From positions 102,744-166,743 of the forward strand of contig NZ_FNVO01000009.1 of the NCBI RefSeq assembly GCF_900108175.1: DNA of 64,000 nt, written 5' to 3'. A model generated the notes under the pieces. The model did no database searches. It was not told the DNA's origin and saw nothing but the letters and a program-made list of their open reading frames with translations. Shown piece after piece: positions 21,747 through 47,036 of the stretch (within the stretch, counting starts at the first letter, position 1; each line of letters starts with the position of its first letter). The position numbers were made by a program, and so were the translations under genes. This DNA comes from Thermomonospora echinospora (GTDB lineage Bacteria > Actinomycetota > Actinomycetes > Streptosporangiales > Streptosporangiaceae).

Positions 21747-21943
21747 GTCAGGACTCGCTTTCCTGGCCAGGCCCCGGAACTCCCCGACGTTGCAGCGTCG
21801 GGCCGGGGCCGCTTGGTTACACATGGTTAGTGAAACCACGTCACACGGCGTAGGCCAGAGGGCATGATGGGGGGACTGGCCGACCCCCCTAGGGGGACGT
21901 CCGCTCCCCCAGGGGTGCGGGGTGACCGGAAGGTGCACGCACC

Positions 21944-24550: not shown

Positions 24551-25807
<1,257 letters not shown>

Positions 25808-25848
25808 CAGGCCCCTGCCTCCTCCGACCACAACGCCCGATCACGGCC

Positions 25849-29548: not shown

Positions 29549-30075
29549 CGTCCCTCCAAACGGGTGTCCGCCGCGGACACGCCGGGTCAACGGCCACCGG
29601 CACGACGGCGGGCCGGGCACGGCTCCGCCCGCCATGCTGGGGCACCCGCCGCCACTGGTCAAGATCTTCAGGCCCGTCGATCCGGTCGCCCGGCCGACTC
29701 GGGGAACGCACCCTGGTCCGATGACCGGTTCCGGTCATGGACGGAAAAGGGAACCGAGATCCATCCGATCCCGTCGAATCACCCGTGCAGCAAGGAGACG
29801 GGAGGTCGCGGGCGGTACCGTTCGAATGCCCGGCTCAAGGCCGCCCGGAACGCGCCCCGGACAATTCGATTGGGCAACAACCAGACATATCTGTATCATT
29901 CGCCTCACGGTGTGCCGGGAAGCCTGGTCGGCAAGGACGACCGGGCTGTCCATCGGCCGGCAACACCGCCAGTCTTCCGGTCGTCCCCGCAAACGACCCG
30001 GTCACCGACCGGGTCGAGACGGCCACGGGTCCCCGCCACCAGGCGGGGGCGGACGCGGGGGAGGTCGGTTAGACC

Positions 30076-30729
30076 ATGGGCGAGTTCGTCGGGACGGTGT
30101 TCGCCTTCCCCACCGTGCTCTTCACCTTTTCGCTGCTGGTCGTCGTCGGCTACTGGGCGTTCGTGGTGCTGGGCGCCGCCGACCTGGACCTGCTGGACGG
30201 CGACGCCGAGGCCGGGGCCGCGGGCCTGGGCGGTTTCCTGGGCGCGCTGCGGCTGGGCGAGGTGCCGGTGACCGTCGCGCTCTCGCTGCTGATCGCCTTC
30301 TCCTGGTTCTTCAGTCTGGTCGGTGCCGTCGTGCTGGATCGTTTCGACCTCTCCTCGCCCCTGACGCTGGCCCTCGGGCTGCTGGCGCTGACCCTGGCCG
30401 TGGTGGCCGGCTGGCTGGTCACCTGCCTGGTGGTGATGCCGCTGCGCAAGGCCCTGCCGCAGGTCCGCGAGTCGTCCCGGCACGACTTCGTGGGCCGGAT
30501 GTGCGTGATCCGCACGTCCACGGTGGGGCCCGACTTCGGCCAGGCCGAGATCACCTCGCCGGACGGCTCGTCGGCCATCATCCAGGTCCGCCAGGAGACC
30601 CCCGATCCCCTGGCCGAGCCGCTCACCGTCGGCAGCAGCGCCCTGATCTTCGACTACGACACGGCCGGCGAGTTCTTCCGCGTCATGCCCTACGACGCCG
30701 CCCTGGATCCCGACCGCCCCTTGCCCTGA
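30076..30729 (+). CDS. NfeD-like / YqiJ-like membrane protein (N-terminal TM helices, C-terminal OB-fold beta domain)
   Basis: Several TM segments are followed by a soluble beta-rich C-terminus (ITSPDGSSAIIQVRQE...SALIFDYD). It lies directly upstream of a flotillin gene, which is the canonical NfeD-SPFH pairing. Confidence 0.65.
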   Translation: MGEFVGTVFAFPTVLFTFSLLVVVGYWAFVVLGAADLDLLDGDAEAGAAGLGGFLGALRLGEVPVTVALSLLIAFSWFFSLVGAVVLDRFDLSSPLTLALGLLALTLAVVAGWLVTCLVVMPLRKALPQVRESSRHDFVGRMCVIRTSTVGPDFGQAEITSPDGSSAIIQVRQETPDPLAEPLTVGSSALIFDYDTAGEFFRVMPYDAALDPDRPLP

Positions 30730-30746
30730 CCCGGGGCCGCCACCGC

Positions 30747-30838
30747 TGCGGCCCCACCGCTTCGACCTCGTTGTCCTGACCGCCCGTCGTTCCGCCTCGA
30801 CGCCCCGGCCGCCCCACCGTCCCGACCTCGTTGCCCTG
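30747..30838. repeat. Two ~30-bp direct repeats (CCCCACCG(c/t)(t/c)(t/c)CGACCTCGTTG(T/C)CCTGACC) with six CCTGA motifs across the 190-bp NfeD-flotillin spacer
   Basis: Read in the sequence. Confidence 0.7.
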
Positions 30839-30919
30839 ACCTCGTTGTTTCGACCGACCGTCGTCCTGAGTCCCCGCCGCCCTGACAGGACGCGACCTGA
30901 CCCCCCGAAGGGAGCGCTG

Positions 30920-33082
30920 ATGGAATCCATCACCCTGGGGCTCGGCGTGCTCATCGCCGTCGTCCTGCTGATCGCGCTCGGCCTGGTGATCATGACCAGC
31001 CGGCTGTTCCGCAAGGTGGAGCAGGGCAAGGCGCTGATCATCTCCAAGGTGCGCAAGGTGGACGTCACCTTCACCGGCGCGGTGGTGCTGCCGGTGCTGC
31101 ACAAGGCCGAGGTGATGGACATCTCGGTGAAGACCATCGAGATCGCCCGTACCGGCCGTGAGGGCCTGATCTGCAAGGACAACATCCGCGCCGACATCCG
31201 CATCACGTTCTTCGTACGGGTCAACAAGACCGTCGAGGACGTCATCAAGGTGGCACAGGCGATCGGCACCGAGCGGGCCAGCAGCCAGGAGACGCTGCAG
31301 GAACTGTTCAACGCCAAGTTCTCCGAGGCCCTCAAGACCGTCGGCAAGCACCTGGACTTCGTCGACCTGTACACCCGGCGCGAGGAGTTCCGCGACCACA
31401 TCATCCGGGTCATCGGCACCGACCTCAACGGCTACAGCCTGGAGGACGCGGCCATCGACTACCTGGAGCAGACCCCGCTGACCTCGCTGGACAAGTCCAA
31501 CATCCTGGACGCCCAGGGCATCCGCAAGATCACCGAGCTGACCGCGATCGAGCACGTGCGCACCAACGAGTTCCAGCGCAACGAGGAGAAGGAGATCACC
31601 CGCCAGAACGTCGACGCCCGGGAGGCCATCCTGGAGCTGCGGCGGCGGGAGGCCGACGCCGAGGCCAAGCAGCGGCGCGAGATCGAGACCGTCAAGGCCC
31701 GCGAGGAGGCCGAGATCGCCCGGGTGCAGGCCGAGGAGCGGCTGCGGGCGCAGACCGCCCACATCCGCACCGACGAGCAGCTCGGCATCCAGCACGAGAA
31801 CAAGGCCCGCGAGATCGCGGTGGCCGAGAAGAACCGCGAGCGGGTCCTCGCCGTCGAGTCCGAGCGGATCGAGAAGGACCGGCTGCTGGAGGTCATCGCC
31901 CGCGAGCGGGAGACCGAGCTGACGCGCATCGCCGCCGACAAGGAGGTCGAGGCCGAGAAGCGGGACATCGCCGAGGTCGTCCGGGAGCGGATCGCGGTCG
32001 AGAAGACCGTGGCCGAGCAGGAGGAGAACATCAAGCGGCTGCGCACGGTCGAGGAGGCCGAGCGGACCCGCCAGGCGCTGGTCATCCAGGCCGAGGCCGA
32101 GGCGCAGGAGGCGCTGGTCAAGGACATCAAGGCGGCCGAGGCCGCGGAGGCGGCGGCCAAGTTCAGGGCCCGCGAGGAGCTGGTGCTGGCCGAGGCCCGG
32201 CAGCAGGCCGCCGACCTCGACGCCCGCGCCAAGATCCGGCTGGCCGAGGGTGTGCAGGCCGAGGAGGCCGCCGCCGGGCTGGCCCAGGCGCAGGTCCGCG
32301 CCCGCAACGCCGAGATCGTCGAGCGGGAGGGCCTGATCGAGGCCCAGATCCGCGAGCGCAACGCCGCCGCGATCGAGAAGGAGGGCCTGGCCGAGGCCAC
32401 GGTCGAGCGCGAGAAGCGGGCCGTGGAGGCCGCCGCGCTGCGCGACCGGCTGCAGGCCGAGGCCGACGGCGAGAAGGACAAGGCGCTGGCCCAGGCCGAG
32501 GGCATCGCCGAGAAGCTCAAGGCCGAGGCGGCCGGCCTGACCGACAAGGCCGCGGCGATGGCCAAGCTGTCGGACGCCACCCGCGAGCACGAGGAGTACC
32601 GGCTGCGGCTGGAGGCCGAGAAGGACATCCGGCTGGCCGGCATCGACGTGCAGCGGCAGGTCGCCGAGCAGCAGGCCAACGTGCTGGCGGCCGGGCTCAC
32701 CAAGGCCGACATCAGCATCGTCGGCGGCGACACGGTGTTCTTCGACAAGCTGGTCGGCTCGGTCGCGCTCGGCAAGGGCATCGACCAGTTCGTCGGCAAC
32801 TCCGAGGTCACCCGTTCGCTGGCCGGCCCGTGGCTGGAGGGCAACGGCCGCTTCACCGAGGACCTGACCCGCGTGCTCGGCTCCATCGGCGCCGGCGACG
32901 TCCGCGACCTCACCCTGTCCGCCCTGCTGGCCAAGCTCATCAAGGCCGGCGGCCCCGACACCGACAAGCTGTCGGAGCTGCTGACCACCGCCCAGCGCCT
33001 CGGCCTGTCCGACGCCCCGGTCAACGCCCTGACCCCGCAGCCGGCCGTCTCCACGGTCAAGTCCGTCAACGGCGACCACTGA
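30920..33082 (+). CDS. Flotillin-family protein (SPFH/band-7 domain; YqiK/FloT-like) with very long Glu/Ala/Arg-rich coiled-coil C-terminal region
   Basis: Has an N-terminal TM helix, an SPFH core and EA-rich heptads. At 720 aa it is longer than the usual 500-550. RBS GAAGGGAG lies before the ATG at 30920. Confidence 0.9.
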   Translation: MESITLGLGVLIAVVLLIALGLVIMTSRLFRKVEQGKALIISKVRKVDVTFTGAVVLPVLHKAEVMDISVKTIEIARTGREGLICKDNIRADIRITFFVRVNKTVEDVIKVAQAIGTERASSQETLQELFNAKFSEALKTVGKHLDFVDLYTRREEFRDHIIRVIGTDLNGYSLEDAAIDYLEQTPLTSLDKSNILDAQGIRKITELTAIEHVRTNEFQRNEEKEITRQNVDAREAILELRRREADAEAKQRREIETVKAREEAEIARVQAEERLRAQTAHIRTDEQLGIQHENKAREIAVAEKNRERVLAVESERIEKDRLLEVIARERETELTRIAADKEVEAEKRDIAEVVRERIAVEKTVAEQEENIKRLRTVEEAERTRQALVIQAEAEAQEALVKDIKAAEAAEAAAKFRAREELVLAEARQQAADLDARAKIRLAEGVQAEEAAAGLAQAQVRARNAEIVEREGLIEAQIRERNAAAIEKEGLAEATVEREKRAVEAAALRDRLQAEADGEKDKALAQAEGIAEKLKAEAAGLTDKAAAMAKLSDATREHEEYRLRLEAEKDIRLAGIDVQRQVAEQQANVLAAGLTKADISIVGGDTVFFDKLVGSVALGKGIDQFVGNSEVTRSLAGPWLEGNGRFTEDLTRVLGSIGAGDVRDLTLSALLAKLIKAGGPDTDKLSELLTTAQRLGLSDAPVNALTPQPAVSTVKSVNGDH

Positions 33083-33261
33083 CCCGTAGCGGGGTGTCGC
33101 GGGCGGCCGCCCGCCCGCGACACCCCGGCCCCGACCGGCCACCCGTGCACACCGGCACGGCGCGACGGAACGGTCCGGCGGATGGCCGTTCCGGAACGAC
33201 TCGTGAACGGGCGGTCGCCGGTTGCGGTGGGCATGGCCGCCATACGCCACTAGGAGGATTC

Positions 33262-36200
33262 GTGACGGAGATCGCCACCGACGCCGCCGGGCATGCGGCC
33301 GTGCCCGGAGACGACGGCAGTGGCGGGCAGGCGGGCGGCCCGGGGATGGACAGCGGCACCTACGAGGTGCTGCGGGCGCGGCTGACCGAGCAGGCGGCCG
33401 AGCTGGCGCGGCGGGCCGAGACGCTCAACGCGCGCCGGGTGGAGGTCTTCGGCAGCGCCGAGCTGCGACTGCTGGGCACCGAGCGGATCCGTACCGGCAA
33501 CAACTGCGTGCCCCGTGACATCGTCCCGGTCACCGGGGCCGTCGTCCCCGCGGACGGGGAGCCCGGTCACCAGTCGGGGCTGATGCTGTTCGGCTACAAC
33601 GTGTTCATCGGGCTCAAGCCGGAGACGACGATCGACGACGTCTTCTCCCTGCATCGCTTCACCCGTGACGGCGATGCGTTCCGGTTCGATGACGTGGCCG
33701 CCGACGAGGCGCCGGGGCTGCTGCGCGACCCCCGCTTCGAGAAGGACTTCGCCGACCTCTACCGCTACTACCGCGACACCCGGCTGATGCAGTTGCGCCG
33801 GCTGGACGGCAAGCTGCTGGCGGTGTTCCAGACCGGGGCGCGCACCACCGACATCCGGGTGCTGCGCTGGCAGATCCACCCGGACGGCACCGCCGAGTAC
33901 CTCGACGCCCAGGGCGAACGCGACCACGTCTTCCCGCCCTCGCACGACTTCACGTGGGTGCAGACCACCCGCGAGCAGCACGTCATGGGCCGCCACCCGC
34001 ACATCTCCATCGAGGACGAGCTGTTCGTGGAGACGGTCGGCGGCGACCTCACCGTCAAGATCGAGAACAACACCGAGTCCGGCGAGGGCGTCTACAGCGA
34101 GCCGGTCGACGAGCCGCTGCAGAGCCTGGCCGACGCCGATGTCCACTACGCCCGGATCGGGTCGCTGATCTGCCTGCGCGTCCGCCCGTACAACGAGACC
34201 GAATGGCGGCACCTGATCTTCAACACCCGCACCAAGGACGTGGTGCGGCTGGACGGCATCGGCCAGGCGTGCCAGCGGCTGCCGGAGGACCACGGGCTGA
34301 TCTTCCCCGGGGGCTACTACCTGACCACCGGGGCCGCCAGGACGTTCGACACCGACGTGGCCGGCCTGGAGTTCGAGCGCGTCATCCGTTCCACCAACGG
34401 CGAGGACGTGCTGTACGTCTTCCACGCCCGCGCCGAGGGCCGCACCCTGCTGCTGCCCTACAACGTGATCCGCAAGCAGGTCGCCGCGCCGCTGCCGTGC
34501 CACGGCTACTCGCTGTTCGACGACGGCACGCTGGTGGTGTTCCGCGCCACGTCCGACGAACCCACCCGCGTCCACCCGATGCAGGTGTGGCAGACCCCGT
34601 ACCTGTCGGACGCCTACGCCGCCGCGCAGCCCGTCGGCACCGGCCCGCTGGAGCGGGTCGGCAACGCCGAGCTGGTACGGGGCATCTCCGACTGCCTGTC
34701 GGTGTCGCGGATGGTCGGCGAGATGGCCCCGTCCACCGCCGTCTACGAGGGCCTGATCTCCGCCTGCGCCCGGGTGTTCGACCACTACCACTGGCTGGGC
34801 GAGGCCGAGCTGGGCGACCTGCGGGCGCCGCTGACGGCCGTCCGGGCCGCGGCCGAGCAGGTGCTGGAGGAGTTCGAGAACGTCCAGGCGCTCACCGCGC
34901 AGGCCGCCGAGGCGGTGAACGAGGCCGCCACCAAGATCGCCTCGCTGGTGCGGACGGTACGGGGCGAGGCGCCCAAGACCGCCGACGCCTGGGTGCAGCA
35001 GCTCGCCGCGCTGCGCCGCGAACAGGGCCACCTGGTCACGCTGCGCGAGCTGCGCTACGTCGACACCGAACGGCTCGACCGCCTCGACGCCGACCTGGAC
35101 ACCGAGCTGGCGGGCGCCGGACGGCGCGCGGTGGCGTTCCTCCAGGGCGAGGACGCGTTCACCGGCTACCACGCCGACGTGGAACACCTGGTCGCCGAGG
35201 CCGCCGAGATCACCACGGTCGCGGCCGCGAAGCCGCTCGGCGAACGGCTGGCCGAGCGGTCGGCCGCACTGGAGACGGTGACCGAGGTCGTCGGCTCCCT
35301 CGACATCGCCGACGCCACCGTGCGCACCCGGATCCTGGAGCGCATCGGCGAGGTCCTCGGCGGCGTCAACCGGGCCCGCGCCACCCTGGAGGCCCGTCGC
35401 CGGGAGCTGCTGGCCACCGAGGGGCGGGCCGCGTTCGCCGCCGAGTTCGCGCTGCTCGGCCAGGCCGTCGCCGGGGCGCTGGCGGTCGCCGACACCCCCG
35501 AGCGCTGCGACGAGCAGCTCGGCCGGCTGATGCTGCGGCTGGAGGACCTGGAAACCCGGTTCGGCGACTTCGACGACTTCCTGGCCGAGCTGTCGGCCAA
35601 GCGCGAGGACGTCTACGAGGCGTTCTCCTCGCGCCGGCAGTCGCTGCTGGACGAGCGGGCCCGCCGCGCCGACCGGCTGGCCGCCTCCGCCGACCGCACC
35701 CTGGCCGGGGTACGCCGCCGGGTGGCGAACCTGGCGTCCCTGGACGAGATCAACACCTACTTCGCCGCCGACCCGATGGTGGCCAAGCTCCGCCAGGTCG
35801 CCGAGGAGCTACGGACGCTGGGCGACGCCGTACGCGCCGAGGAGCTGGAGGGCCGGGTCAAGGCCGCCCGCCAGGAGGCCGGGCGTTCCCTGCGCGACCG
35901 CGCCGACCTGTTCACCGACGGCGGCGAGAGCATCCGCCTCGGCCGGCACCGCTTCGCGGTCAACACCCAGCCGATCGACCTCACCCTCGTCCCGCACTCC
36001 GGCGGCATGGCGTACGCCGTCACCGGCACCGACTACCGCTCCCCCGTCGAGGACGAAGGGTTCACCGGCACCCGCGCGTACTGGGACCAGCCGCTGGTGT
36101 CGGAGTCCCCCGAGGTCTACCGGGCCGAGCACCTGGCCGCGTCCATCCTCGCCATGGCCGAGAACGGCGCCGGGGGCCTCACGCTGGAGTCCCTGCACGA

Positions 36201-38496
36201 AGCCGCCGTCACCGAAGACGCCCTCCTGACGGCCGTCCGGAAGGTCGCCGAGTCGCGCTATGACGAGGGCTACGAACGCGGCGTCCACGACCACGACGCC
36301 ACGCTGATCCTCCAGGCTCTGCTGCGGCTGCACTCGGCTGCCGGCCTGCTGCGTTACCCCCCGTCCGCCCGCGCCGCCGCCCGGCTGTTCTGGGCGTACG
36401 GCACGGACGAGGCCGCCCGCACCCGCTGGACCCGCCGGGCCGCCTCCCTGGCCCGCGCCCGCGCCGCCTTCGGCTCCGCCCCCGCCATCACCGAACTCCA
36501 CGACGAGCTGACCCAGGCCATCGCCGTCTTCATGAACCGGCACGACCTCAATGTCACGCCGTCGGAGTCCTCGTCCGGGTCCGCCGACCTCTCCGGGGGA
36601 CGACCGGACGGGCTCCGCTCCAACGACCCCGCATCACCACCGGCCGACCCGGCCGACCCGGCCGACCCGGCCGGCTCGTTCGGCTCGTTCGGCTCAGGGA
36701 TGGCCTCTGGATCCGCGGTGCAGGGGCGGGGCGCTCGGCCTGACCCGTTGGCCGGGGAGTACCTGTTCGAGGAGCTGGCCGGGAACGTTGGCGGTTTCGT
36801 CACGGGGGCGGGTGCCCGCAGGCTGCTGGAGCTGTTCCGCCGGGCGCTGGGGGGCGGCGGCTCGCACTCGCTGACCGCCTTCGAGGACGACCTGCGCGCG
36901 CTGGGCGACGACCTCGCCGCCCGACAGCAGCTCGTGGAGGCGTGGCTGCGCGCCTTCGCCTCGTCCCAGGGCGAGGCGGAGGGCTTCGAGATGGACCTGC
37001 CCGAGGCCGTCGCGATCGAGCTGTGCGGCGCCGCCGTTCCGCGTCACGACTCGTCCGCCACGTTGAGCGCCACCGTCGAGGGCCTGCTGGGCGCCCACCC
37101 GCGCATCACCGATCGGCGGCTGGACCTGCGCATCGACGAGTTCCTCGCCCGCACCCGCGCGTTCCGTACCGAACGCGTCCCGGCCTACCGGGCGTACCAG
37201 AAGCGGCGCGGCGAGCTGGTCGATCGGGAACGCGCCCGGCTGCGGCTGGAGGAGTACCGGCCCAAGGTGATGAGCGCGTTCGTCCGCAACCGGCTGCTGG
37301 ACGAGGTCTACCTACCGCTGATCGGCGACAACCTGGCCAAGCAGCTCGGGGCGTCCGGCGACGCCAAGCGCACCGACCAGATGGGCCTGCTGCTGCTGAT
37401 CTCCCCGCCCGGCTACGGCAAGACGACGCTGATGGAGTACGTGGCCAGCCGCCTCGGCCTGGTGTTCGTCAAGATCAACGGCCCCGCCCTGGGCCACTCG
37501 GTCACCTCGCTGGACCCGGCCGAGGCGCCCAGCGCCACCGCCCGCCAGGAGATCGAGAAGATCTCCTTCGCCCTGGAGTGCGGCAACAACACGCTGCTCT
37601 ACCTGGACGACATCCAGCACACCAACCCCGAGCTGCTGCAGAAGTTCATCTCGCTGTGCGACGCCCAGCGCCGCATGGAGGGCGTCTGGAACGGCCGCAC
37701 CCGCACCTACGACCTGCGCGGCAAGCGCTTCGCGGTGTGCATGGCGGGCAACCCGTACACCGAGGCGGGCAAGAGGTTCCGCATCCCCGACATGCTCGCC
37801 AACCGGGCCGACGTGTGGAACCTGGGCGACGTCCTGTCCGGCAAGGACGAGCTGTTCGCCCTCAGCTACATCGAGAACGCCCTCACCTCCAACCCCGTCC
37901 TGGCGCCGCTGTCCACCCGCGACCGCGGCGACCTGGAGCTCCTGGTCCGCCTGGCCAAGGGCGACGACTCGGTCCGCCCCGACCGGCTCTCCCACCCCTA
38001 CTCCCAGGTCGAGCTGGACCAGATGGTGTCCGTGCTGCGCAAGCTGCTGCGCGTCCAGCAGATCGTGCTGGCGGCCAACCGGGCCTACATCGCCTCGGCC
38101 GCCCAGTCCGACGACTCCCGCACCGAGCCCCCGTTCCAGCTCCAGGGCTCCTACCGCAACATGAACAAACTGGCCGAACGCATCGTCCCCGTCATGAACG
38201 ACACCGAGCTGGAATCCCTCATCGACGACCACTACCTAGGCGAATCCCAAACCCTGGCCGCCGGCGCCGAAGCCAACCTCCTCAAACTCGCCGAACTACG
38301 CGGCACCCTCACCACCGCCCAGGCCACCCGCTGGCACGACGTCAAACAGTCCTACCTCCGCGCCAAGGCCCTCGGCGGCCAGGACGACGACGCCGTCACC
38401 CGAGCCGTCGGCGCCCTCGGCCTCCTCGCCGACCGGGTAGGCGACATAGAACAGGCCATCCACCGCGCCACCACGCGCCCCACCCCGGCACCCTGA
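33262..38496 (+). CDS. Giant 1744-aa protein with N-terminal beta-rich domain, central coiled coil and C-terminal MoxR/AAA_5-like AAA+ ATPase module
   Basis: RBS AGGAGGA + 5 nt lies before the GTG at 33262. Walker A is LLLISPPGYGKTTL, Walker B is TLLYLDDIQH and the sensor region is VCMAGNPYTEAGKRFRIPDMLANRADVW. A Pro/Asp-rich linker (PADPADPADPAGSFGSFGSG) precedes the ATPase. Confidence 0.8.
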   Translation: MTEIATDAAGHAAVPGDDGSGGQAGGPGMDSGTYEVLRARLTEQAAELARRAETLNARRVEVFGSAELRLLGTERIRTGNNCVPRDIVPVTGAVVPADGEPGHQSGLMLFGYNVFIGLKPETTIDDVFSLHRFTRDGDAFRFDDVAADEAPGLLRDPRFEKDFADLYRYYRDTRLMQLRRLDGKLLAVFQTGARTTDIRVLRWQIHPDGTAEYLDAQGERDHVFPPSHDFTWVQTTREQHVMGRHPHISIEDELFVETVGGDLTVKIENNTESGEGVYSEPVDEPLQSLADADVHYARIGSLICLRVRPYNETEWRHLIFNTRTKDVVRLDGIGQACQRLPEDHGLIFPGGYYLTTGAARTFDTDVAGLEFERVIRSTNGEDVLYVFHARAEGRTLLLPYNVIRKQVAAPLPCHGYSLFDDGTLVVFRATSDEPTRVHPMQVWQTPYLSDAYAAAQPVGTGPLERVGNAELVRGISDCLSVSRMVGEMAPSTAVYEGLISACARVFDHYHWLGEAELGDLRAPLTAVRAAAEQVLEEFENVQALTAQAAEAVNEAATKIASLVRTVRGEAPKTADAWVQQLAALRREQGHLVTLRELRYVDTERLDRLDADLDTELAGAGRRAVAFLQGEDAFTGYHADVEHLVAEAAEITTVAAAKPLGERLAERSAALETVTEVVGSLDIADATVRTRILERIGEVLGGVNRARATLEARRRELLATEGRAAFAAEFALLGQAVAGALAVADTPERCDEQLGRLMLRLEDLETRFGDFDDFLAELSAKREDVYEAFSSRRQSLLDERARRADRLAASADRTLAGVRRRVANLASLDEINTYFAADPMVAKLRQVAEELRTLGDAVRAEELEGRVKAARQEAGRSLRDRADLFTDGGESIRLGRHRFAVNTQPIDLTLVPHSGGMAYAVTGTDYRSPVEDEGFTGTRAYWDQPLVSESPEVYRAEHLAASILAMAENGAGGLTLESLHEAAVTEDALLTAVRKVAESRYDEGYERGVHDHDATLILQALLRLHSAAGLLRYPPSARAAARLFWAYGTDEAARTRWTRRAASLARARAAFGSAPAITELHDELTQAIAVFMNRHDLNVTPSESSSGSADLSGGRPDGLRSNDPASPPADPADPADPAGSFGSFGSGMASGSAVQGRGARPDPLAGEYLFEELAGNVGGFVTGAGARRLLELFRRALGGGGSHSLTAFEDDLRALGDDLAARQQLVEAWLRAFASSQGEAEGFEMDLPEAVAIELCGAAVPRHDSSATLSATVEGLLGAHPRITDRRLDLRIDEFLARTRAFRTERVPAYRAYQKRRGELVDRERARLRLEEYRPKVMSAFVRNRLLDEVYLPLIGDNLAKQLGASGDAKRTDQMGLLLLISPPGYGKTTLMEYVASRLGLVFVKINGPALGHSVTSLDPAEAPSATARQEIEKISFALECGNNTLLYLDDIQHTNPELLQKFISLCDAQRRMEGVWNGRTRTYDLRGKRFAVCMAGNPYTEAGKRFRIPDMLANRADVWNLGDVLSGKDELFALSYIENALTSNPVLAPLSTRDRGDLELLVRLAKGDDSVRPDRLSHPYSQVELDQMVSVLRKLLRVQQIVLAANRAYIASAAQSDDSRTEPPFQLQGSYRNMNKLAERIVPVMNDTELESLIDDHYLGESQTLAAGAEANLLKLAELRGTLTTAQATRWHDVKQSYLRAKALGGQDDDAVTRAVGALGLLADRVGDIEQAIHRATTRPTPAP

Positions 38497-38672
38497 CCGC
38501 CAGAACCTACAGCCCTCTGCGATTTTCAAGCCCTCCTCGCCCTTAAAACTGCACTATCCTGCAATTTCGTCCATATCTGTAATTATGGATGACCGAATAC
38601 AGTTCGGAACTCATGGACAGCAGGTCGCCATTCCCCTAGATTTGCATCTCGGACTTCTGAGGGTGGCCGACC

Positions 38673-39392
38673 ATGAAGATCTTCTCCACGGAGGGGCGAG
38701 GGATCTCCGAGGACGATGTTCCCGGTGCGCTCGCAGAGCGCGGAGTGCTCTACTTCCGCAATGGCGATCTGGGATCTGTGCGATCCCACGTCTTCGACTG
38801 GGGAAGGCCGTACGATCATCCGCATCAGAGCGCGCCCGGAATCACGCTGATCCGCGCCCGGCACACCCGGCCGCCGGCCGGGTTGAGCGGATTTACCAGG
38901 GACCGGCTGGCGCTCCACACCGATCGCGCGACCTGCGCCGAACCACCGGCGGTGGTCGCGACCCTGGTCCTGGCCGCCCCGCGGGCCGGAGGTCAGGCAC
39001 TTCTCGCGGATTCGGCGCGGGTGCTGACCGCCTGGTCCCGGCGGCGAAGGCTCTCCACCGCCCGGAGATCGGCCTTTCTGGAAACCAGGAAGGGACGGAC
39101 CCTACGGCCGCTCATCGACTCCGCACCGACGGGCGGGGTACGGATTCGTTTTCGCGATGACGGCATCGCCCGTCCGGCGGCCATGGGGCCGGCCGGTGAG
39201 GAATTCATCGGCGAGCTCAAAAGGCTGTGTTCGCGACCCGTGGTGCTGGACCTCGGCCCAGGCGAGGGATATCTGATCGACAACTATCGCTACCTGCACG
39301 GACGGCGGTCGTTCGTCGGAGAGCGCACCGTGGTCCGGTTCCTGGCGACGCCAGGCCCCGACCACACGATCCCCTTTGGTTTCGATGGCTAG
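38673..39392 (+). CDS. TauD/TfdA-like Fe(II)/2-oxoglutarate dioxygenase-fold protein
   Basis: LALHTDRATCAEPP is the HxD...P motif 1 and DNYRYLHGRRSF is the DNR...H motif 2. RBS GAGGGTGG is present. The gene is preceded by an AT-rich tract. Its GC3 is clearly lower than that of neighbouring genes. Confidence 0.6.
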   Translation: MKIFSTEGRGISEDDVPGALAERGVLYFRNGDLGSVRSHVFDWGRPYDHPHQSAPGITLIRARHTRPPAGLSGFTRDRLALHTDRATCAEPPAVVATLVLAAPRAGGQALLADSARVLTAWSRRRRLSTARRSAFLETRKGRTLRPLIDSAPTGGVRIRFRDDGIARPAAMGPAGEEFIGELKRLCSRPVVLDLGPGEGYLIDNYRYLHGRRSFVGERTVVRFLATPGPDHTIPFGFDG

Positions 39393-40395
39393 GCGGCCGG
39401 TCGGGCGCGGTTCCCGGCAGAGCCCGCGCGCTCGGCTCGTCCAACGGCTCGCCGCGTTGCCCCCGGCGACGACGCCCGGTTTCTCCACCGGCATACGGGA
39501 GGTCGTCGAGAGCCTTTCCGACCCGGAGGCACAGCTTGCGGACGTGCTGCGCAGCACCCGGCATCCCACCGACGTGCGGTTCGCGGCCCTGTACGGCTGG
39601 CTGCTCAGGCTCCGGCGGGAGGAAAGGTACGCCGAGTACGAATCCGTGCTGAGGCAGTATGGTCACGAGTTCGAGCAAGAGCCCTATGTCTACACGTTCC
39701 ACGCGATCGTCGCGCGCAACAGAGGAGACGCCAGTAGCCTGAGAAGCGCGGTCGAGTACTCCCGGCGCGCGGCCGAGCTGATGCCCGATGTGGCCGGGGT
39801 CGTGCACCAGCTCGCGGCCTTTCTGATCGAGTATCTCGAACGCTCCGACTCCGTCGTCGAAGCCGAGCTTCGGGAGGCGGAACGATCCGTGGACCAGGCG
39901 ATAGCGCTGACACACGGGCAGATCGGCCACTATTTCGAGACCAGAGCCCGCATACTCGCGATCCGGGGAGACTTCGGCGCCGCCCGGGCCGCCGTCAACC
40001 AGGCCATAGAGCTGGAGCCGCGGACCACCCGGGACTACCAGCGGAGGCTGACGCAGTACCAGACCACCCGAATCCGCATCGAGCTGCTGCAACAGCGCGC
40101 GTACTGGCGGCGGCAGCAGGAGGACAATCGCCGCGAACTGACCGATTTCAAAGCACAGCAGTTGCAACTGCTCGGCCTGTTGGCCGCGGTGGTGGCCTTC
40201 ATCGCGACCACGGGAAACCTCGCCGCCAGCGCCAGATGGCCGGACAGCATCCGCCTCATCGAAGGCATGGCCGGGTCCATCATCATCGTCTTCGCGTCGT
40301 TCACCCTGGCAAGTTCGAAGTCGGTATGGCGAGTCCTGTTCATGTACCTGGTGGGTGGGGTACTGCTGGTCGTGCCGTATCTAGTCGAAGGGTGA
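39385..40395 (+). CDS. Hypothetical protein with helical, repeat-like soluble N-domain and 2-3 C-terminal TM helices
   Basis: The start overlaps the stop of the upstream gene (ATGGCTAG). The C-terminus LLGLLAAVVAFIATTGNLAA...IIIVFASFTLA...VLFMYLVGGVLLVVPYLV is hydrophobic. Confidence 0.55.
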   Translation: MARRPVGRGSRQSPRARLVQRLAALPPATTPGFSTGIREVVESLSDPEAQLADVLRSTRHPTDVRFAALYGWLLRLRREERYAEYESVLRQYGHEFEQEPYVYTFHAIVARNRGDASSLRSAVEYSRRAAELMPDVAGVVHQLAAFLIEYLERSDSVVEAELREAERSVDQAIALTHGQIGHYFETRARILAIRGDFGAARAAVNQAIELEPRTTRDYQRRLTQYQTTRIRIELLQQRAYWRRQQEDNRRELTDFKAQQLQLLGLLAAVVAFIATTGNLAASARWPDSIRLIEGMAGSIIIVFASFTLASSKSVWRVLFMYLVGGVLLVVPYLVEG

Positions 40396-40400
40396 CAGGT

Positions 40401-41219
40401 GTGAAGCTCGTTGATTCGGCAGGAGCGGCCGGCGCATCAGATCGGCTCTCCGAGGACAGATTCGGAATGTCCGGAAATTGCGCCTGGGTCATCGACGGCG
40501 CATCGGATTTCCGGAACGAGCGGAATCTGCCCGCCGTCTCGAACGTCCACTGGCTCGTGGATCGTCTGCAGGGCGCCCTGCAGACGCGCGGCGCCGACGG
40601 CACCGTCGCCTCGGGCACCCTCCTGCTGACCGAGATACAGGCCGAGATCGTCGCTGAACTGGCCCGCCACGACCTGCGGGAGATGCAACAGCATCCCTGC
40701 TGCTCCCTGACCCTGCTCGTGGTGCACGAAGACGTCCTGGAGATCGTCCGGGTCGGAGACGCGGTCGGTGTCCTGTGCGGTGACTCGCTGGAGCTGGAGA
40801 TCAGCACCGGGTTCTTCGACGCGCGTGAGGCCGCCGCGGTCGAGCAGGCGCGAGCCCAGGACCTGACGATGGACGAGATCACCTCGGCGATGTACCGGCG
40901 GCGTTCGGAGTACATCCGCGGCATCAACGGCGAGTCGGTCTTCTCCGGCCATCCGGACGGGAACCTCTTCGCGCATTCCCTGCTGGTCCCTCGTCGGCGC
41001 GGAGCGGGCTTCGTCGTCCTGCTGTGCACGGACGGCCTGGCCAGAGCCGTGACGGAATACCGGCTCTTCGCCGACTGGCCTGCGCTGCTCAACGCCTGCC
41101 TGGCCAAGGGCGTGGATGCAGTGATCACCGAAATGCGCGCCTTCGAGGACGCGGCCGAGTCCGTGGCGGGCAAATTCAAGAAATCCGACGATGTGGCGGC
41201 CGTGCTGCTCCAGGTTTGA
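40401..41219 (+). CDS. PP2C-like (PPM-fold) phosphatase-like protein, possibly divergent or inactive
   Basis: A GTG lies 6 bp after the upstream stop. PPM-like blocks WVIDGASD, RVGDAVGVLCGDS and LLCTDGLARAV are present, but several canonical metal-binding Asp and Gly residues are substituted. Confidence 0.5.
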   Translation: MKLVDSAGAAGASDRLSEDRFGMSGNCAWVIDGASDFRNERNLPAVSNVHWLVDRLQGALQTRGADGTVASGTLLLTEIQAEIVAELARHDLREMQQHPCCSLTLLVVHEDVLEIVRVGDAVGVLCGDSLELEISTGFFDAREAAAVEQARAQDLTMDEITSAMYRRRSEYIRGINGESVFSGHPDGNLFAHSLLVPRRRGAGFVVLLCTDGLARAVTEYRLFADWPALLNACLAKGVDAVITEMRAFEDAAESVAGKFKKSDDVAAVLLQV

Positions 41220-41344
41220 CCGGCATCGGCCACGGCCGTCCGGCACCGGACGGCGCACGAGACCATCACTGCACCCGGTACCGCGAACCGGGGGCCGGCC
41301 CTGCGCGGCGAACAGGAGCGAACATGTCGACCACCGACCATCCC

Positions 41345-41779
41345 CCCTTCCTGGTCGAACGGAACCCCGGCTACTTCGAGTACCAGCTTCCCGTCTCGGT
41401 GAAGCTGATCATCGACTACGGCGGAAAGGTCCCGCTGCTCAAGAACGAGCGCGAGGAGTGGGAACTACCCGGCGGAAAGCTCGAAGTGGGGGAACGGCCG
41501 GACGAGTGCGTCGCACGCGAGGTCGAGGAGGAGTTGGGGCTGACCGTGAAGGTGGAGGATCTGGTCGACACCTGGGTCTATGAGATCACTCCACTACGCC
41601 ACGTCTTTATCGTCACCTACGGAGCCCACTACACGGGCTTCCAGACCCCACGCAGCTCCAATGAGCACAAGGCCCTCGGCCTGTTCTCCCCCGGGGAGGT
41701 CGGCGGCCTCACCATGCCCGAGCAGTACAAGACGTCCATCAAGCGCTGGTACGCCATGACGGGCAAGCCGACCGCGTGA
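41345..41779 (+). CDS. NUDIX hydrolase
   Basis: Has a perfect Nudix box GGKLEVGERPDECVAREVEEELGL (Gx5Ex7REVxEELGL). RBS AGGAG lies before the ATG at 41345. Confidence 0.85.
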   Translation, partial: PFLVERNPGYFEYQLPVSVKLIIDYGGKVPLLKNEREEWELPGGKLEVGERPDECVAREVEEELGLTVKVEDLVDTWVYEITPLRHVFIVTYGAHYTGFQTPRSSNEHKALGLFSPGEVGGLTMPEQYKTSIKRWYAMTGKPTA

Positions 41780-41851
41780 CTCCGGGCACCCTCCCCCAGC
41801 AGCCGGTCACCTCATGACATCTGCGCGGGCTTCCCGGACGACCCATGCGGG

Positions 41852-42679
41852 CTACGGCTTGCGGCCTATTCCGCCGACGATGAGTCGGTCCCATGCCGTC
41901 GGCTCCCGGTCCGGTGGGGTGTCCGGGTGCCATTCGACCAGCGGCACGATGCCCGGGTCGACCATTTCCAGTCCGGTGAAGAAGGACTCGATCTCGTGCT
42001 GCTCGCGCCACCGCCCGCGGCCGAAGGACGCCTGCAGCATCTGCTCGATCTGCTGCGACTCCTCGTTGTGCTCGGTGCGGAAGTGGGTGATGAACAGGTG
42101 GCTGCCGGAGGGGACCGCCTCGCGCAGGGTCGCCACGATGCCGGCCGGGTCCTCCTCGTCCTCCAGGTGATGCAGGACCGCGCACAGGATGACGCCGACG
42201 GGCCGGTCGAAGTCGATCAGCTTCCGCGTCGCGGAGTCGTCCAGGATCCCGCGCGGATCACGGGCGTCGGCCTGGATCACCGCCGTGCGATCGTTCTCGT
42301 CCAGCAGGGCCCGGCCGTGCGCGAGCACGATGGGGTCGCTGTCGACGTAGACCACCCGGGACTCGGGAGCGTGCCGCTGGGCGACCTGGTGCACGTTCTC
42401 GGCCGTGGGCAGGCCGCTGCCGATGTCGATGAACTGCCGGATCCCCGCCTGCCGGACGAGGTACCGCACGGCGCGCCCGAGCACCCTGCGATTCTCGACG
42501 GCGATCGTCACCGCACCGGGCAACTGTTCCTTGATCATGTCGCCCACGGCGCGGTCGGAGGCGAAGTTGTCCTTCCCACCGATCATGTAGTCGTAGACAC
42601 GGGCGATGCTGGGCACGGTCGGGTCGATCCCCACAGGCACCCGCCCGGCACCGGCCGACGGCTCCCCGATTCCTTCCAC
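41852..42679 (-). CDS. SAM-dependent methyltransferase of the actinobacterial Methyltransf_19/DUF574 type
   Basis: The N-terminus PSIARVYDYMIGGKDNFASDR is diagnostic of this family. RBS GGGAG lies before the GTG at 42679. Confidence 0.8.
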   Translation of the reverse strand: MEGIGEPSAGAGRVPVGIDPTVPSIARVYDYMIGGKDNFASDRAVGDMIKEQLPGAVTIAVENRRVLGRAVRYLVRQAGIRQFIDIGSGLPTAENVHQVAQRHAPESRVVYVDSDPIVLAHGRALLDENDRTAVIQADARDPRGILDDSATRKLIDFDRPVGVILCAVLHHLEDEEDPAGIVATLREAVPSGSHLFITHFRTEHNEESQQIEQMLQASFGRGRWREQHEIESFFTGLEMVDPGIVPLVEWHPDTPPDREPTAWDRLIVGGIGRKP

Positions 42680-44645: not shown

Positions 44646-44724
44646 CAACAAGCCATCACAGCCCCGCCGTATCGGCCGGTCCCCCTGAGGTCCTCCCAGG
44701 CGATCAGCCGTGCCGAACGGCGGG

Positions 44725-44928
44725 TCAACTGATGTCGTAACAACCGCCCTTGATCCGCTGAGCGAAGGCACTCCACTCACTCTGCCGGAACGCCAAGATG
44801 CCACCCTCCGGATCCTTGCTGTCGCGCACGACGACAGCCTGCTCGGCGCTGGCGATCTCTACGCAGTTCTGCCCGCCGTTATCGCTGCGGCGGGACTTGC
44901 GCCAGACGACGTTCGGCGGGGTAATCAT
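44725..44928 (-). CDS. DUF397-domain protein (second, downstream copy)
   Basis: VWRKSRRSDNGGQNCVEIA...VRDSKDPEGGILAF is the DUF397 signature. The long 5' extension in the track ORF is rejected. Confidence 0.75.
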   Translation of the reverse strand: MITPPNVVWRKSRRSDNGGQNCVEIASAEQAVVVRDSKDPEGGILAFRQSEWSAFAQRIKGGCYDIS

Positions 44929-44942
44929 TTGGGCGGCGCTCC

Positions 44943-45176
44943 TCACGGGCTTCCGTTCCGGGCAAGCGCGGTGATGAGCTGGACCGACTTGGCCGGGATG
45001 AATTGTGGTTCCCAGGCAAGGACCTCGCTGGCCTCGTCCTCCAGAGCGAAGATACTCCCGCTGAAGACGGCAGCATAGGCCATCGTGCTCGCCGTCCAAA
45101 TGATCGACCGTGCCGAGCGGCGGGTCAGCTGATGTCGTAACAACCGCCCTTGACCCGCTGAGCGAAGGCACCCCAC
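44943..45176 (-). pseudogene. Truncated remnant of an XRE/DUF5753 regulator gene (paralogous to 45400-46305)
   Basis: The encoded fragment ...AAVFSGSIFALEDEASEVLAWEPQFIP matches WWTAYADVFSGSIVALEDEASEIRAWEPQLVP of the intact XRE gene. The surrounding DNA is about 85% identical to the 45090-45320 and 45930-46030 segments. There is no start codon and no HTH. Confidence 0.55.
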
Positions 45177-45403
45177 GCGTCCTGTTGGAACGCCAAGATG
45201 CCACCCTCCGGGTCCTTGCTATCGCGCACGGCGACCACACGCCCGGCATCGGCGACCTCAACGCAGTTGGCACCGCCGTTGCCGCTGCGCTGGCTCTTGC
45301 GCCAGCCAGCGTGGGAGAGGTCCATCGAGGCGACCTCGACACAGTTGTCTCTGGGGCCGCTGTGCCGAGATTTACGCCAGGGGATGTCTGATAGGTGGAT
45401 CAT
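45125..45403 (-). CDS. DUF397-domain protein (two DUF397 repeats in tandem)
   Basis: WRKSRHSGPRDNCVEVA and WRKSQRSGNGGANCVEVA...VRDSKDPEGGILAF are both present. It overlaps the XRE stop by 4 nt, the canonical XRE-DUF397 operon arrangement. Confidence 0.8.
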   Translation of the reverse strand: MIHLSDIPWRKSRHSGPRDNCVEVASMDLSHAGWRKSQRSGNGGANCVEVADAGRVVAVRDSKDPEGGILAFQQDAWGAFAQRVKGGCYDIS

Positions 45404-46305
45404 TCGGGAGACGCTCCTTGGGGTCGGTCCCCTTGAGCCAGGGCAGTGATGAACTTGACGGACTCGCTCGGGGACATTGCTACATGGCAGATCGCTTCCA
45501 AACCAACCCTAATGCGAGCAACCTCCTCAGCGCTCTCCAGATAGATGTCTCCCATGGGCCCCTCGGCAAAGGCCACGTCGAGCTCATCGTCGTCGTTGAA
45601 GCTCAGAAGCTCCATGGACCCTTCCAAACCCCGGTGCGCGCCGGCGTCGAAGGGAAGGACCTGGATCGTGATGTTCGGCCGTCCGGCTGCCTCGGTGAGA
45701 GCAGTGAGCTGCTTCCGTATGACTTCCCGACCACCGATGGCCCGACGCAGTACAGCCTCGTCCAATACGGCGTGCAACTGTGGAGCGTTTGGGCGCCGTA
45801 GCAGCATTCCGCGATTCATACGAGCCATCACACGTCGCTGAACCGCCACCTGGTCACCGGTGTACGTACTGATGACCTCGCGGGCGTAGTCCTCGGTCTG
45901 GAGCAGGCCGGGGACGAGTTGTGGTTCCCAGGCGCGGATCTCGCTGGCCTCGTCCTCCAGGGCGACGATGCTTCCGCTGAAGACATCGGCGTAGGCCGTC
46001 CACCAGCCGCGCTTCCAGGAGTCCTTGGCGAGCTTGGCCAGCGCGGCATGGGTCGCATCATCGACGCCGTACAGCGCCAGCGCCGCCTCGATGTCGGCGT
46101 TCTTGGGCTGGGTCTGCGCCTTCTCGATGCGGGTGAGCTTGCTGAGCGACCAGCCGAGCTGCCGGGCCGCCTGGCTGGGCGTCAGCCCGGCACGCTCGCG
46201 GAGTTTGCGCAGCTCGAACGCCAAACGTCGGCCTCTGGTCGTGGGGCTGGAGACAACAGCCACGTCAGCACTCCTGATCTCCAAAGATCGCACACGAACG
46301 TGCAA
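45400..46305 (-). CDS. XRE-family HTH regulator with DUF5753 C-terminal domain (Scr1-like)
   Basis: The HTH is LRKLRERAGLTPSQAARQLGWSLSKLTRIEKAQ. The DUF5753-type C-terminus is present. Confidence 0.85.
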   Translation of the reverse strand: MHVRVRSLEIRSADVAVVSSPTTRGRRLAFELRKLRERAGLTPSQAARQLGWSLSKLTRIEKAQTQPKNADIEAALALYGVDDATHAALAKLAKDSWKRGWWTAYADVFSGSIVALEDEASEIRAWEPQLVPGLLQTEDYAREVISTYTGDQVAVQRRVMARMNRGMLLRRPNAPQLHAVLDEAVLRRAIGGREVIRKQLTALTEAAGRPNITIQVLPFDAGAHRGLEGSMELLSFNDDDELDVAFAEGPMGDIYLESAEEVARIRVGLEAICHVAMSPSESVKFITALAQGDRPQGASPE

Positions 46306-46592
46306 CTTCCATCTTCATCATGCTACTTGCACGATACCTATGACGTTCCTTACAGTGCAGAGCGTAGTCATCCAACTCTGCAGAGGAGCGAATTCCGTGT
46401 AGTTTGCTCCGCTTCCAGACCGAGGCAGCTCATGACGATCTTCCATAGGAGTCCCGTACCTGGGCGGGGCCAAGCCCCATCTCCCGCCGTTCCGCCAACC
46501 GGTGTTCGTTGGCGTTCACCGTCGCAGCGGCACCGCACCACCTCGCGTCGGGCGGACCGGACGGGCCCGTTCCGGCTCGGTGGGGGGTCGTG

Positions 46593-47036
46593 ATGGCCGC
46601 GGCCGTTCTCGGGTCGATGGCGATCGTGGCCGAGGCGAGTCAGGTCAGGGTCGTGCGGCGGTGGTTGCGCGGGCTGCTCGGGGCCGAGCATCCCGCCTGC
46701 TACGACTCCGAACTGCTCGGCAGCGAGCTGGTCACCAACGCCATCGAGCACTCCGACTCCGGCCAGTTCGGCCCCGGCGGAACGCCCGGGACCGTTCACA
46801 TCACCGTCCTCGCCCTGGACGGCGCCGTCCGTGTCGAGGTCACCGACGCCGGCTCCGCCACCAGCGTTCCCCAGATCGCCGACCCCGCGACCTACGCCAC
46901 CAGCGGCCGGGGCCTGCGGATGGTCCGTGACCTCACCGGTGGCCGCTGCGGCACCCACACCCACGAGGGCGGCCGCACCGTCTGGTTCGAACTCCCGCAC
47001 CCACCGGCCCTCACCCCGAACGGAGACCGCCCGTGA
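46593..47036 (+). CDS. ATP-binding protein (histidine-kinase-like ATPase fold, anti-sigma-factor-like), partner of the XRE/DUF397 module
   Basis: The pattern ELVTNAIEHS...GRGLRMV is present. It is divergent from the XRE gene, as in the Streptomyces triad. The start MAAAVLG is assumed. Confidence 0.75.
   Translation: MAAAVLGSMAIVAEASQVRVVRRWLRGLLGAEHPACYDSELLGSELVTNAIEHSDSGQFGPGGTPGTVHITVLALDGAVRVEVTDAGSATSVPQIADPATYATSGRGLRMVRDLTGGRCGTHTHEGGRTVWFELPHPPALTPNGDRP

Follow-up and report, generated by a model that had tools for sequence, protein, structure and literature searches.

Nucleotide-depletion systems (dCTP deaminase, dGTPase) and abortive-infection (Abi) systems that pair an enzyme with a transmembrane effector follow a logic resembling the one proposed below for a four-gene cassette of Thermomonospora echinospora: enzymes eliminate a pool of nucleotides or a signal, they are accompanied by a membrane partner, and the genes reside in defence islands and on mobile elements. 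The cassette has no homology to these systems, and neither a TauD-type Fe(II)/2-oxoglutarate (2OG) oxygenase nor a PPM phosphatase occurs in any system modelled in PADLOC v2. It occupies positions 38673 to 41779 of the window, by which we mean the whole analysed stretch of 64,000 nucleotides (contig NZ_FNVO01000009.1, positions 102,744 to 166,743 of the forward strand), and its sequence predicts one membrane protein and three metal-dependent enzymes whose active sites are intact. The results show a horizontally mobile accessory operon of Actinomycetota that is conserved and self-contained, and whose four genes are inherited, lost and transferred together.

The defence cargo of Tn7-like elements (Benler et al. 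2021, PMC8649781) was a further point of comparison. In one lineage the cassette directly follows TniB/TniQ genes and is accompanied by restriction-modification (R-M) and Abi cargo, as in the described elements; NUDIX, TauD and PP2C cargo is, however, unmentioned in the text of that paper, and the window copy has no Tn7-like genes. No paper was found that holds NUDIX, PP2C and TauD together. One candidate, PMC7159879, combines the terms NUDIX, PP2C, dioxygenase and gene neighbourhood and was set aside, as it treats unrelated systems. An earlier note on this DNA, made from the letters alone, had described the combination as a pathway that it did not recognise; the combination matches no PADLOC system and no paper that we found. 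Each cassette enzyme is a member of its superfamily, and none reaches a characterised subfamily in Pfam or NCBIfam. For these reasons together, we rate the locus as an accessory, island-borne multi-enzyme cassette whose combination of genes is undescribed.

Conservation and layout of the operon

The four genes, named g1 to g4, all lie in the same direction on the + strand. The predicted products of g1 and g3 are 100% identical to proteins recorded for T. echinospora. The features of the locus are as follows.

38497–38672, + strand: AT-rich intergenic leader and promoter region ahead of g1 (guanine-plus-cytosine (GC) content 0.517 over the intergenic stretch)
38614–38642, + strand: sigma-70-like promoter candidate TGGACA-17-TAGATT, about 30 nt 5' of the g1 ATG (consensus match only)
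38673–39392, + strand: g1, minimal TauD/TfdA-family Fe(II)/2OG oxygenase, 239 aa (Pfam TauD)
39385–40395, + strand: g2, cytoplasmic TPR-like helical domain, coiled coil and three C-terminal transmembrane helices, 336 aa
40168–40389, + strand: membrane region of g2, three hydrophobic helices
40401–41219, + strand: g3, PPM/PP2C-fold metal-dependent phosphatase, 272 aa, GTG start at 40401
41220–41323, + strand: g3–g4 spacer, 104 nt, with AGGAG 7 nt 5' of the g4 ATG
41324–41779, + strand: g4, NUDIX hydrolase of MutT/RppH-like type, 151 aa

For the conservation analysis, one genome per species was scanned, which gave 333 relatives of g3, and cassettes were counted by tblastn of all four window proteins in the best 78 of these 333 loci. 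The order g1-g2-g3-g4 on one strand was found in 28 actinobacterial species representatives, from genera that include Actinoallomurus, Actinomadura, Sphaerisporangium, Sphaerimonospora, Nonomuraea, Actinocrinis, Natronosporangium, Micromonospora, Plantactinospora, Streptomyces, Ornithinimicrobium, Antribacter and Promicromonospora. The 36 cassette copies, eight of which are decayed, partial or incomplete (L007, L008, L013, L015, L020, L028, L035 and L069), span Streptosporangiales, Micromonosporales, Streptomyces, Catenulisporales and Micrococcales. Relative to the window proteins, identity amounts to 26–43% for g1, 33–65% for g2, 29–59% for g3 and 55–73% for g4. Elsewhere, g1 and g2 mostly overlap or lie at most 12 nt apart, g2 and g3 are separated by 0–41 nt, and the distance from g3 to g4 ranges from -35 to 106 nt. 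The proposal that the four genes form one unit was therefore upheld, with order, strand, and tight spacing or overlaps kept in about 30 genomes. In the decayed copies g1 and g2 go first, g4 usually stays and solo g3 occurs, a pattern that fits a costly accessory system but does not discriminate between the functional readings.

Some lineages carry additional genes beside the cassette. In one Micromonospora synteny group, an open reading frame (ORF) of 113–137 aa without a Pfam match ends about 25 nt 5' of g1 on the same strand (L016, 7855–8214; also L017, L021, L023 and L026) and may be a lineage-specific fifth gene. Streptomyces-type versions have a second, convergent NUDIX gene of 141–168 aa directly 3' of g4 (L097, 11357–11788; L098, 11326–11832; L101, 3789–4214; L014, 11335–11760).

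In the window itself, the g1 stop codon and the g2 ATG overlap at 39385–39392 within ATGGCTAG, with an alternative TTG start of g2 at 39376, and the GTG of g3 follows the g2 stop at a distance of 5 nt. The gene boundaries are thus tight, as had been described. Between g3 and the NUDIX gene there are 104 nt, not the 125 that had been given; the AGGAG in this gap makes a good ribosome-binding site for g4. The promoter candidate listed above is the only promoter-like match in 38300–42000, where 0.5 are expected by chance, and the scan of this interval found neither a terminator-like nor a promoter-like site in the g3–g4 spacer. The operon is probably transcribed from the AT-rich region at 38497–38672. 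The leader contains small inverted repeats (38567–38575/38584–38592) and a CCGAA-N5-TTCGG element at 38593–38607. A riboswitch or leader RNA in the AT tract was considered and rejected, as a search of Rfam at E <= 1 gave only a chance small-RNA match inside g3. No operator conserved across genera was visible upstream of g1, where only lineage-specific promoter-like motifs were seen.

The mean GC content of the window is 0.720, and that of the AT tract at 38520–38680 is 0.484 (z = -4.7). This tract had been called the only strongly AT-rich tract of the window: it is indeed the lowest-GC 161-bp window of the 64 kb, but it is not the only such tract, since 46248–46408 reaches 0.497 in the 161-bp scan. 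The lowest-GC 100-bp window is 38543–38642, with a GC content of 0.43. GC content at third codon positions (GC3) is 0.775 for g1, 0.834 for g2, 0.839 for g3 and 0.868 for g4, against a mean of 0.916 (sd 0.050, median 0.926) in the 35 other window genes, with z-scores of -2.8, -1.6, -1.5 and -0.95, respectively. The third codon positions are thus less GC-saturated than those of the neighbours, as had been observed by eye. The cassette has a GC content of 0.666, against 0.724 for the rest of the window. Among all 3.1-kb windows of the 64 kb, the one with the lowest GC content starts at 38504, so that at this scale no other stretch is as poor in GC as that of the cassette.

The further proposal, acquisition from a lower-GC donor, received no specific support. 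Of 37 host loci, 29 have a cassette that is poorer in GC than its surroundings, with a difference of 0.04 or more in 22, and the nearest relatives of the cassette are found within the same family, in Actinoallomurus and Actinomadura, with Thermomonosporaceae closest. Accordingly, we regard the GC dip as a probable standing trait of the cassette lineage and not as proof of a low-GC donor.

Predicted products of the four genes

The earlier note had named the products a TauD-like dioxygenase, a helical protein with transmembrane segments, a divergent PP2C-like protein and a NUDIX protein with a canonical box. All four calls were confirmed by the domain, profile and fold searches given below, and the metal ligands of the first and third products, which had been singled out for checking, proved to be retained.

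For g1, the match to Pfam TauD (PF02668) reached 54.1 bits (E = 2.9e-14), where the cut-off is 27. Residues H82-T-D84-R85, R159, R161, D163, N204, R206, H209-G-R211, R218 and R222 are invariant in 22 orthologues, and the HxD...H facial triad with the downstream arginines (H82, D84, H209, R218 and R222) is also kept in nine further family members. By its TauD-like spacing, we infer that R218 would be the ligand of the 2OG C5 carboxylate. The AlphaFold2 (AF2) model (predicted local distance difference test, pLDDT, 88.7) and Foldseek gave the double-stranded beta-helix of the clavaminate-synthase-like group, with TmpA (6npb) on top (TMq 0.72), followed by BBOX1, PvcB, CarC and TauD at a probability of 1.0. 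The profile search against the PDB also placed TmpA and BBOX1 first, with E-values from 4e-10 to 2e-9 (TmpA 4e-10). Protein searches with a word prefilter returned 2 matches for the single sequence and 11 for the profile, which are lower bounds on the family.

The protein shares with the TmpA/BBOX1 clade the fold (Foldseek TMq 0.67–0.72), the HxD...H iron triad and the downstream arginine for 2OG. However, it consists of the catalytic barrel only (239 aa against about 380 aa) without the N-terminal domain of that clade, so that the catalytic half alone aligns in the PDB profile search, and identity is 18–21%. It scores far under the TmpA, TMLH and BBOX equivalog cut-offs; in NCBIfam, TmpA gave 23.8 against 400 bits and TMLD 32.8 against 268 bits. 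The invariant residues that line its pocket are arginines (R85, R159, R161, R206, R211 and R222), and no aromatic cage could be demonstrated there. The seven invariant arginines of g1 suggest an anionic substrate.

For g2, the Pfam TPR_2 match was weak (18.2 bits against a cut-off of 27), and the profile found TPR proteins of the PDB at E of about 1e-3 only, over residues 147–220. The Kyte-Doolittle 19-mer scan located three C-terminal hydrophobic segments, at aa 262–280, 291–309 and 317–335, with peaks of 2.00, 1.90 and 2.13, and the helices are linked by loops of 7–10 residues. The best-conserved part is the first transmembrane helix with the amphipathic stretch ahead of it, and the segment FKxQQLQLLGLLAAVVAFIA is near-invariant in 24 orthologues. 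In a library of 1.84 billion proteins, the family comprises 568 clusters at 50% identity, all of about 310–420 aa and without fusions; with a limit of E <= 1e-10, the number of g2 clusters is 269.

The g3 protein scored 23.8 bits with Pfam PP2C_2, which is 0.2 under the cut-off of 24 (E = 3.8e-5), and several orthologues have a precomputed PF13672 match. Its AF2 model (pLDDT 92.8) showed the PPM beta-sandwich fold, confirmed by Foldseek matches to PstP, Stp1, tPphA and PPM1K at a probability of 1.0, with TM values of 0.58–0.67 and 12–19% identity. The acidic motifs E18-D19, D32-G33, D211-G212 and D264 do not vary among 32 sequences, and D263 hardly does; these residues were assigned to motifs I, II, VIII and XI by order and spacing rather than by structural superposition.

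Compared with PstP, Stp1 and tPphA, g3 has the same fold and the four acidic metal motifs in the same order, with D19 and D32 13 residues apart. It differs from them in its low sequence identity, in a two-helix insert (138–173) that replaces the usual flap, and in being a catalytic domain only, with no sensor domain, transmembrane domain or partner kinase. In addition, its Pfam score falls just below the gathering threshold and its sequence profile found no PP2C in the PDB. The substrate may be a small molecule rather than a phosphoprotein.

Distant homologues of g3 (24–32% identity) occur in Alphaproteobacteria (L033, L036–L078), namely in Hyphomicrobiaceae, Caulobacterales and Thalassobaculum. 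They are single genes in conserved housekeeping neighbourhoods with TrpRS, MurJ, PurL, YebC, prolyl oligopeptidase, MaoC and patatin genes, which suggests that the PPM subfamily also has a stand-alone, probably core, role. As solo genes amid housekeeping genes, these homologues were discarded as a functional clue.

The g4 protein is the most conserved of the cassette, with 66% mean column identity, and matched Pfam NUDIX (PF00293) with 57.1 bits against a cut-off of 21.1 (E = 2.5e-15). The Nudix box G50-G51-K-x3-G56-E57-x7-R65-E66-x2-E69-E70-L-G is invariant in 27 orthologues. With its canonical box and a length of about 150 aa, g4 resembles the MutT/RppH NUDIX proteins, and its best PDB profile matches were BdRppH (3ees) and MutT proteins, at E-values from 1e-10 to 3e-9. 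It nevertheless stays under all NCBIfam equivalog cut-offs (TIGR00586 (MutT) 45.9 against 97.9 bits; PRK10776 40.7 against 148) and has its own conserved strand motif at the N-terminus, YLVERNPGYFEYQLPISVK, which is family-specific and invariant.

Mobility and neighbouring genes

A close relative, represented by metagenome contigs, is 87–88% identical in nucleotides over window 29891–38469. At the same locus it has g3 alone of the four genes (80.6% nucleotide identity, window 40371–41224), and other genes occupy the places of g1-g2 and of g4 (L079, 8452–11977; also L080 and L081). The similarity covers g3 together with about 30 nt ahead of its start codon and about 8 nt past its stop, as if g3 had been exchanged or retained as a single-gene module. 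This solo g3 is intact (78% amino acid identity) and lies between unrelated genes, one of them a MerR/HATPase_c_2/DUF4325 gene. Since the relative has g3 only, with other genes beside it, the site is a variable hotspot. The flanking genes of the cassette also differ from genus to genus and are unrelated, which marks the unit as accessory.

Upstream of the cassette, window 30076–38496 holds a three-gene operon encoding proteins of 217 aa, 745 aa and 1737 aa, the last a DUF3686-DUF7902-AAA protein, with GC3 of 0.96–0.98; the 217-aa and 745-aa proteins had no Pfam match. We rejected this operon as a part of the system, as it is kept in the close relative (L079/L080) at 81–89% nucleotide identity and is absent beside the cassette copies in L001–L078.

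The clearest mobile context is that of a wastewater actinobacterial lineage (L082–L096), in which the full cassette stands directly after the TniB/TniQ genes of a Tn7-like element and overlaps the last TniQ gene. This copy is nearest to the Ornithinimicrobium cassette. It is the first cargo of the element and is constant, whereas the cargo downstream varies and comprises type I R-M, type IIG R-M with an AbiJ-like gene, or integrases. The transposon-borne version also has an additional, fifth ORF (134 aa; L087, 12850–13254; also in L082–L096 generally), which overlaps the end of the NUDIX gene by 4 nt; it matches no Pfam family, and none of the other loci has a homologue. Another cassette copy lies between Tad-pilus genes and DUF6112 conjugation-like genes. 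TniB/TniQ homologues were found neither in the window nor in loci other than L082–L096. By tblastn, g2 had no copy among 72,556 plasmids and g3 had none among 50,697 phages, and PHROGs returned generic NUDIX families only.

Several copies adjoin defence genes. In Streptomyces sp. NPDC019937, PglX (2e-294) and PglW (E = 0) stand directly 5' of the cassette, a Pgl/BREX-2 context, and a PDC-S28 helicase stands 3' of it. A type IIG R-M gene adjoins the cassette in a Micromonospora, and DISARM DrmA (3e-294) adjoins a decayed g3+g4 copy. In a Micromonospora synteny group, a 2141-aa DEAD/Helicase_C/MZB (DUF1998) protein of Druantia or DISARM type, 87–89% identical across species, is encoded 0.1–5 kb 3' of the cassette (L102, 6444–12869; also L017, L021, L023 and L026). 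In the window, the genes next to the cassette encode a SnoaL protein, a methyltransferase and a TetR regulator.

In 21 of 37 loci, and likewise in the window, a gene of the XRE (HTH_31-DUF5753) type lies no more than 10 kb from the cassette, in many cases accompanied by DUF397 and anti-sigma-like ATPase genes. These XRE genes are 29–40% identical to that of the window whatever the relatedness of the cassettes, and lie on either side at 0.3–6 kb; from their sequences, they are not co-inherited orthologues. Such XRE-DUF397 pairs are pleiotropic developmental regulators (PMC10364602), and a passage of PMC12516864 gives only about 15 of them per Streptomyces coelicolor genome. The window pair belongs to a WhiJ-like regulatory cluster at 44702–47036 (GC about 0.63), whose region includes the AT tract at 46248–46408, the second most AT-rich of the window, and a duplicated 90-nt fragment (44995–45084 and 45911–46000). 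Its genes, and those of three further signalling proteins of the window, are listed here.

44702–44912 and 45102–45312: the copies, 82% identical, of a 211-nt repeat that belongs to two tandem DUF397 genes
45400–46305, - strand: HTH_31-DUF5753 XRE gene, GC3 0.758
46509–47036: HATPase_c_2 anti-sigma-like gene
48927–51362 and 24551–25840: two SpoIIE-type PP2C phosphatases, one of them an ANTAR-GAF-PAS-SpoIIE protein of 811 aa
51408–55841: hybrid histidine kinase of 1477 aa with an array of six HAMP domains

The two SpoIIE-type phosphatases are unrelated to g3; together with the hybrid kinase, they indicate a genome rich in PPM signalling proteins. A 469-aa ORF without a Pfam match at window 21926–23335 has a GC3 of 0.80, low like that of the cassette genes, and may be another accessory gene.

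Candidate functions of the cassette

A conflict or defence module of anti-phage or anti-mobile-element type is the function that we tentatively prefer, and we hold it to be possible rather than probable. In a short chain, the three enzymes would work on a single small molecule that is phosphorylated and probably derives from a nucleotide. The NUDIX protein would cleave a pyrophosphate bond, for example converting a (d)NTP or NDP-X to NMP; the PPM protein would remove the remaining phosphate or reset a phosphoprotein switch; and the arginine-rich TauD-type oxygenase would irreversibly oxidise the anionic product next to its anionic group. As a net effect, a metabolite that an invader needs would be depleted or converted, with the chain under the control of the membrane TPR protein. 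The absence of an enzymatic domain in g2 and its highly conserved transmembrane segment suggest a sensor, a scaffold or a membrane effector. A nucleotide-type substrate is suggested by the arginine-rich pocket of g1 together with the MutT/RppH-like character of g4, whose nearest matches in the PDB profile search are NTP and RNA-5'-triphosphate pyrophosphohydrolases. The complete proposal, in which this would be the first four-component anti-phage or anti-mobile-element system to use a TauD Fe/2OG oxygenase with NUDIX and PPM enzymes for the oxidative destruction or conversion of a nucleotide-derived metabolite, gated by a TPR protein with three transmembrane helices, is in our judgment unlikely.

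A signalling or defence role had been thought conceivable in the earlier note. What speaks for it is circumstantial: defence genes adjoin the cassette in about five independent contexts, and many contexts have none. Several results weigh against the defence function. By raw tally, the five are set among roughly 25–30 independent contexts; with none recognised in most of the others, the link to defence islands is real in several lineages and not general. The pooled immediate neighbours (140 proteins from 27 loci) are heterogeneous and include a polyketide synthase (PKS), an RHS toxin and a subtilase, and the window copy has no defence gene, mobility gene, tRNA or bracketing direct repeat nearby. 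No known system was matched: in PADLOC-DB v2, g1 and g3 matched nothing, g2 gave a meaningless 18-bit match, and only g4 found an entry, the single-gene NUDIX candidate PDC-S07 (E = 4e-16). We rejected this match as evidence for defence, because the similarity is no stronger than that to the generic Pfam NUDIX model and PDC-S07 is reported from unrelated taxa, such as Enterobacter, Streptococcus and archaea. Cassette similarity roughly tracks taxonomy, and vertical inheritance with loss fits this as well as frequent transfer. The occurrence of solo g3 in the close relative and in Alphaproteobacteria means that g3 is not intrinsically a defence protein, and the closest solved relatives of g1, TmpA and BBOX1, are small-molecule hydroxylases that point equally to catabolism. 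Both the substrate and the sequence in which the enzymes would act are purely inferred.

The catabolic direction leads to an alternative that we consider nearly as likely as defence, though still on the doubtful side, namely a detoxification, resistance or catabolic cassette. The NUDIX protein, the phosphatase and TauD-type oxidative cleavage would then degrade an exogenous phosphorylated or anionic xenobiotic in sequence, for example an organophosphate or an antibiotic of the nucleoside or phosphonate class, with the membrane protein as an anchor or uptake partner, and the cassette would spread on mobile elements like resistance genes. TauD-family enzymes classically free sulfite or phosphate from anionic substrates, and this agrees with the many invariant arginines of g1 and with its closeness, in both profile and fold, to TmpA, a phosphonate hydroxylase, and BBOX1. 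A trio of hydrolytic and oxidative enzymes is typical of catabolic operons, some contexts contain PKS and other secondary-metabolism genes, and the cargo of Tn7-like elements includes resistance genes too (PMC8649781). However, no conserved neighbour of the cassette is a transporter, a regulator or another pathway gene, the three helices of g2 with their short loops are not a transporter-like architecture, no cassette enzyme reaches an NCBIfam equivalog, and the recurring R-M, Pgl, DISARM and Abi neighbours would be unexpected for a catabolic operon.

The phosphatase invites a regulatory explanation, which we judge improbable. Here g3 would be a protein Ser/Thr phosphatase whose target is g2 or a phosphoprotein of the host, g4 would tune a nucleotide alarmone, and the module would feed actinomycete stress or developmental control together with the nearby XRE, DUF397 and anti-sigma-like genes. 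The closest folds of g3 are bacterial protein phosphatases (PstP, Stp1 and tPphA), and the frequency of XRE genes near the cassette, the small number of XRE-DUF397 pairs in S. coelicolor and their pleiotropic part in development all fit this explanation. Yet no kinase accompanies the cassette in a conserved way, the XRE genes nearby are not inherited together with it, the transposon-borne copy has no such regulator, and a TauD-type oxygenase with an arginine-rich pocket is left unexplained. Lowest in probability, and very unlikely in our estimate, is a cargo that benefits the mobile element itself by degrading host immune nucleotide signals or alarms raised by depleted metabolites, on the model of phage NUDIX or phosphodiesterase anti-defence proteins. 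NUDIX and phosphatase chemistry is suited to signal degradation, the cassette overlaps the end of the TniQ gene and is constant in that transposon where the downstream cargo varies, and another copy lies in the conjugation-like region. Most copies, however, are chromosomal with no mobility genes nearby, the plasmid, phage and PHROGs searches gave only the generic NUDIX matches, and neither the membrane TPR protein nor the oxygenase would be explained.

The defence function and its alternatives are directly testable, as the cassette is compact (3.1 kb), its catalytic residues are clear and natural partial versions exist (solo g3; g3+g4). For high-GC genomes, the locus illustrates that a GC dip can mark a long-standing accessory cassette and need not mean a recent import from a low-GC source. 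If the cassette serves detoxification instead, it would be a mobile resistance determinant. Actinomycetes are phage-rich and industrially important hosts whose immune repertoire is poorly charted, and, if the defence function is true, the coupling of TauD-type oxidation to NUDIX and PPM hydrolysis would be a new enzymatic logic in bacterial immunity.

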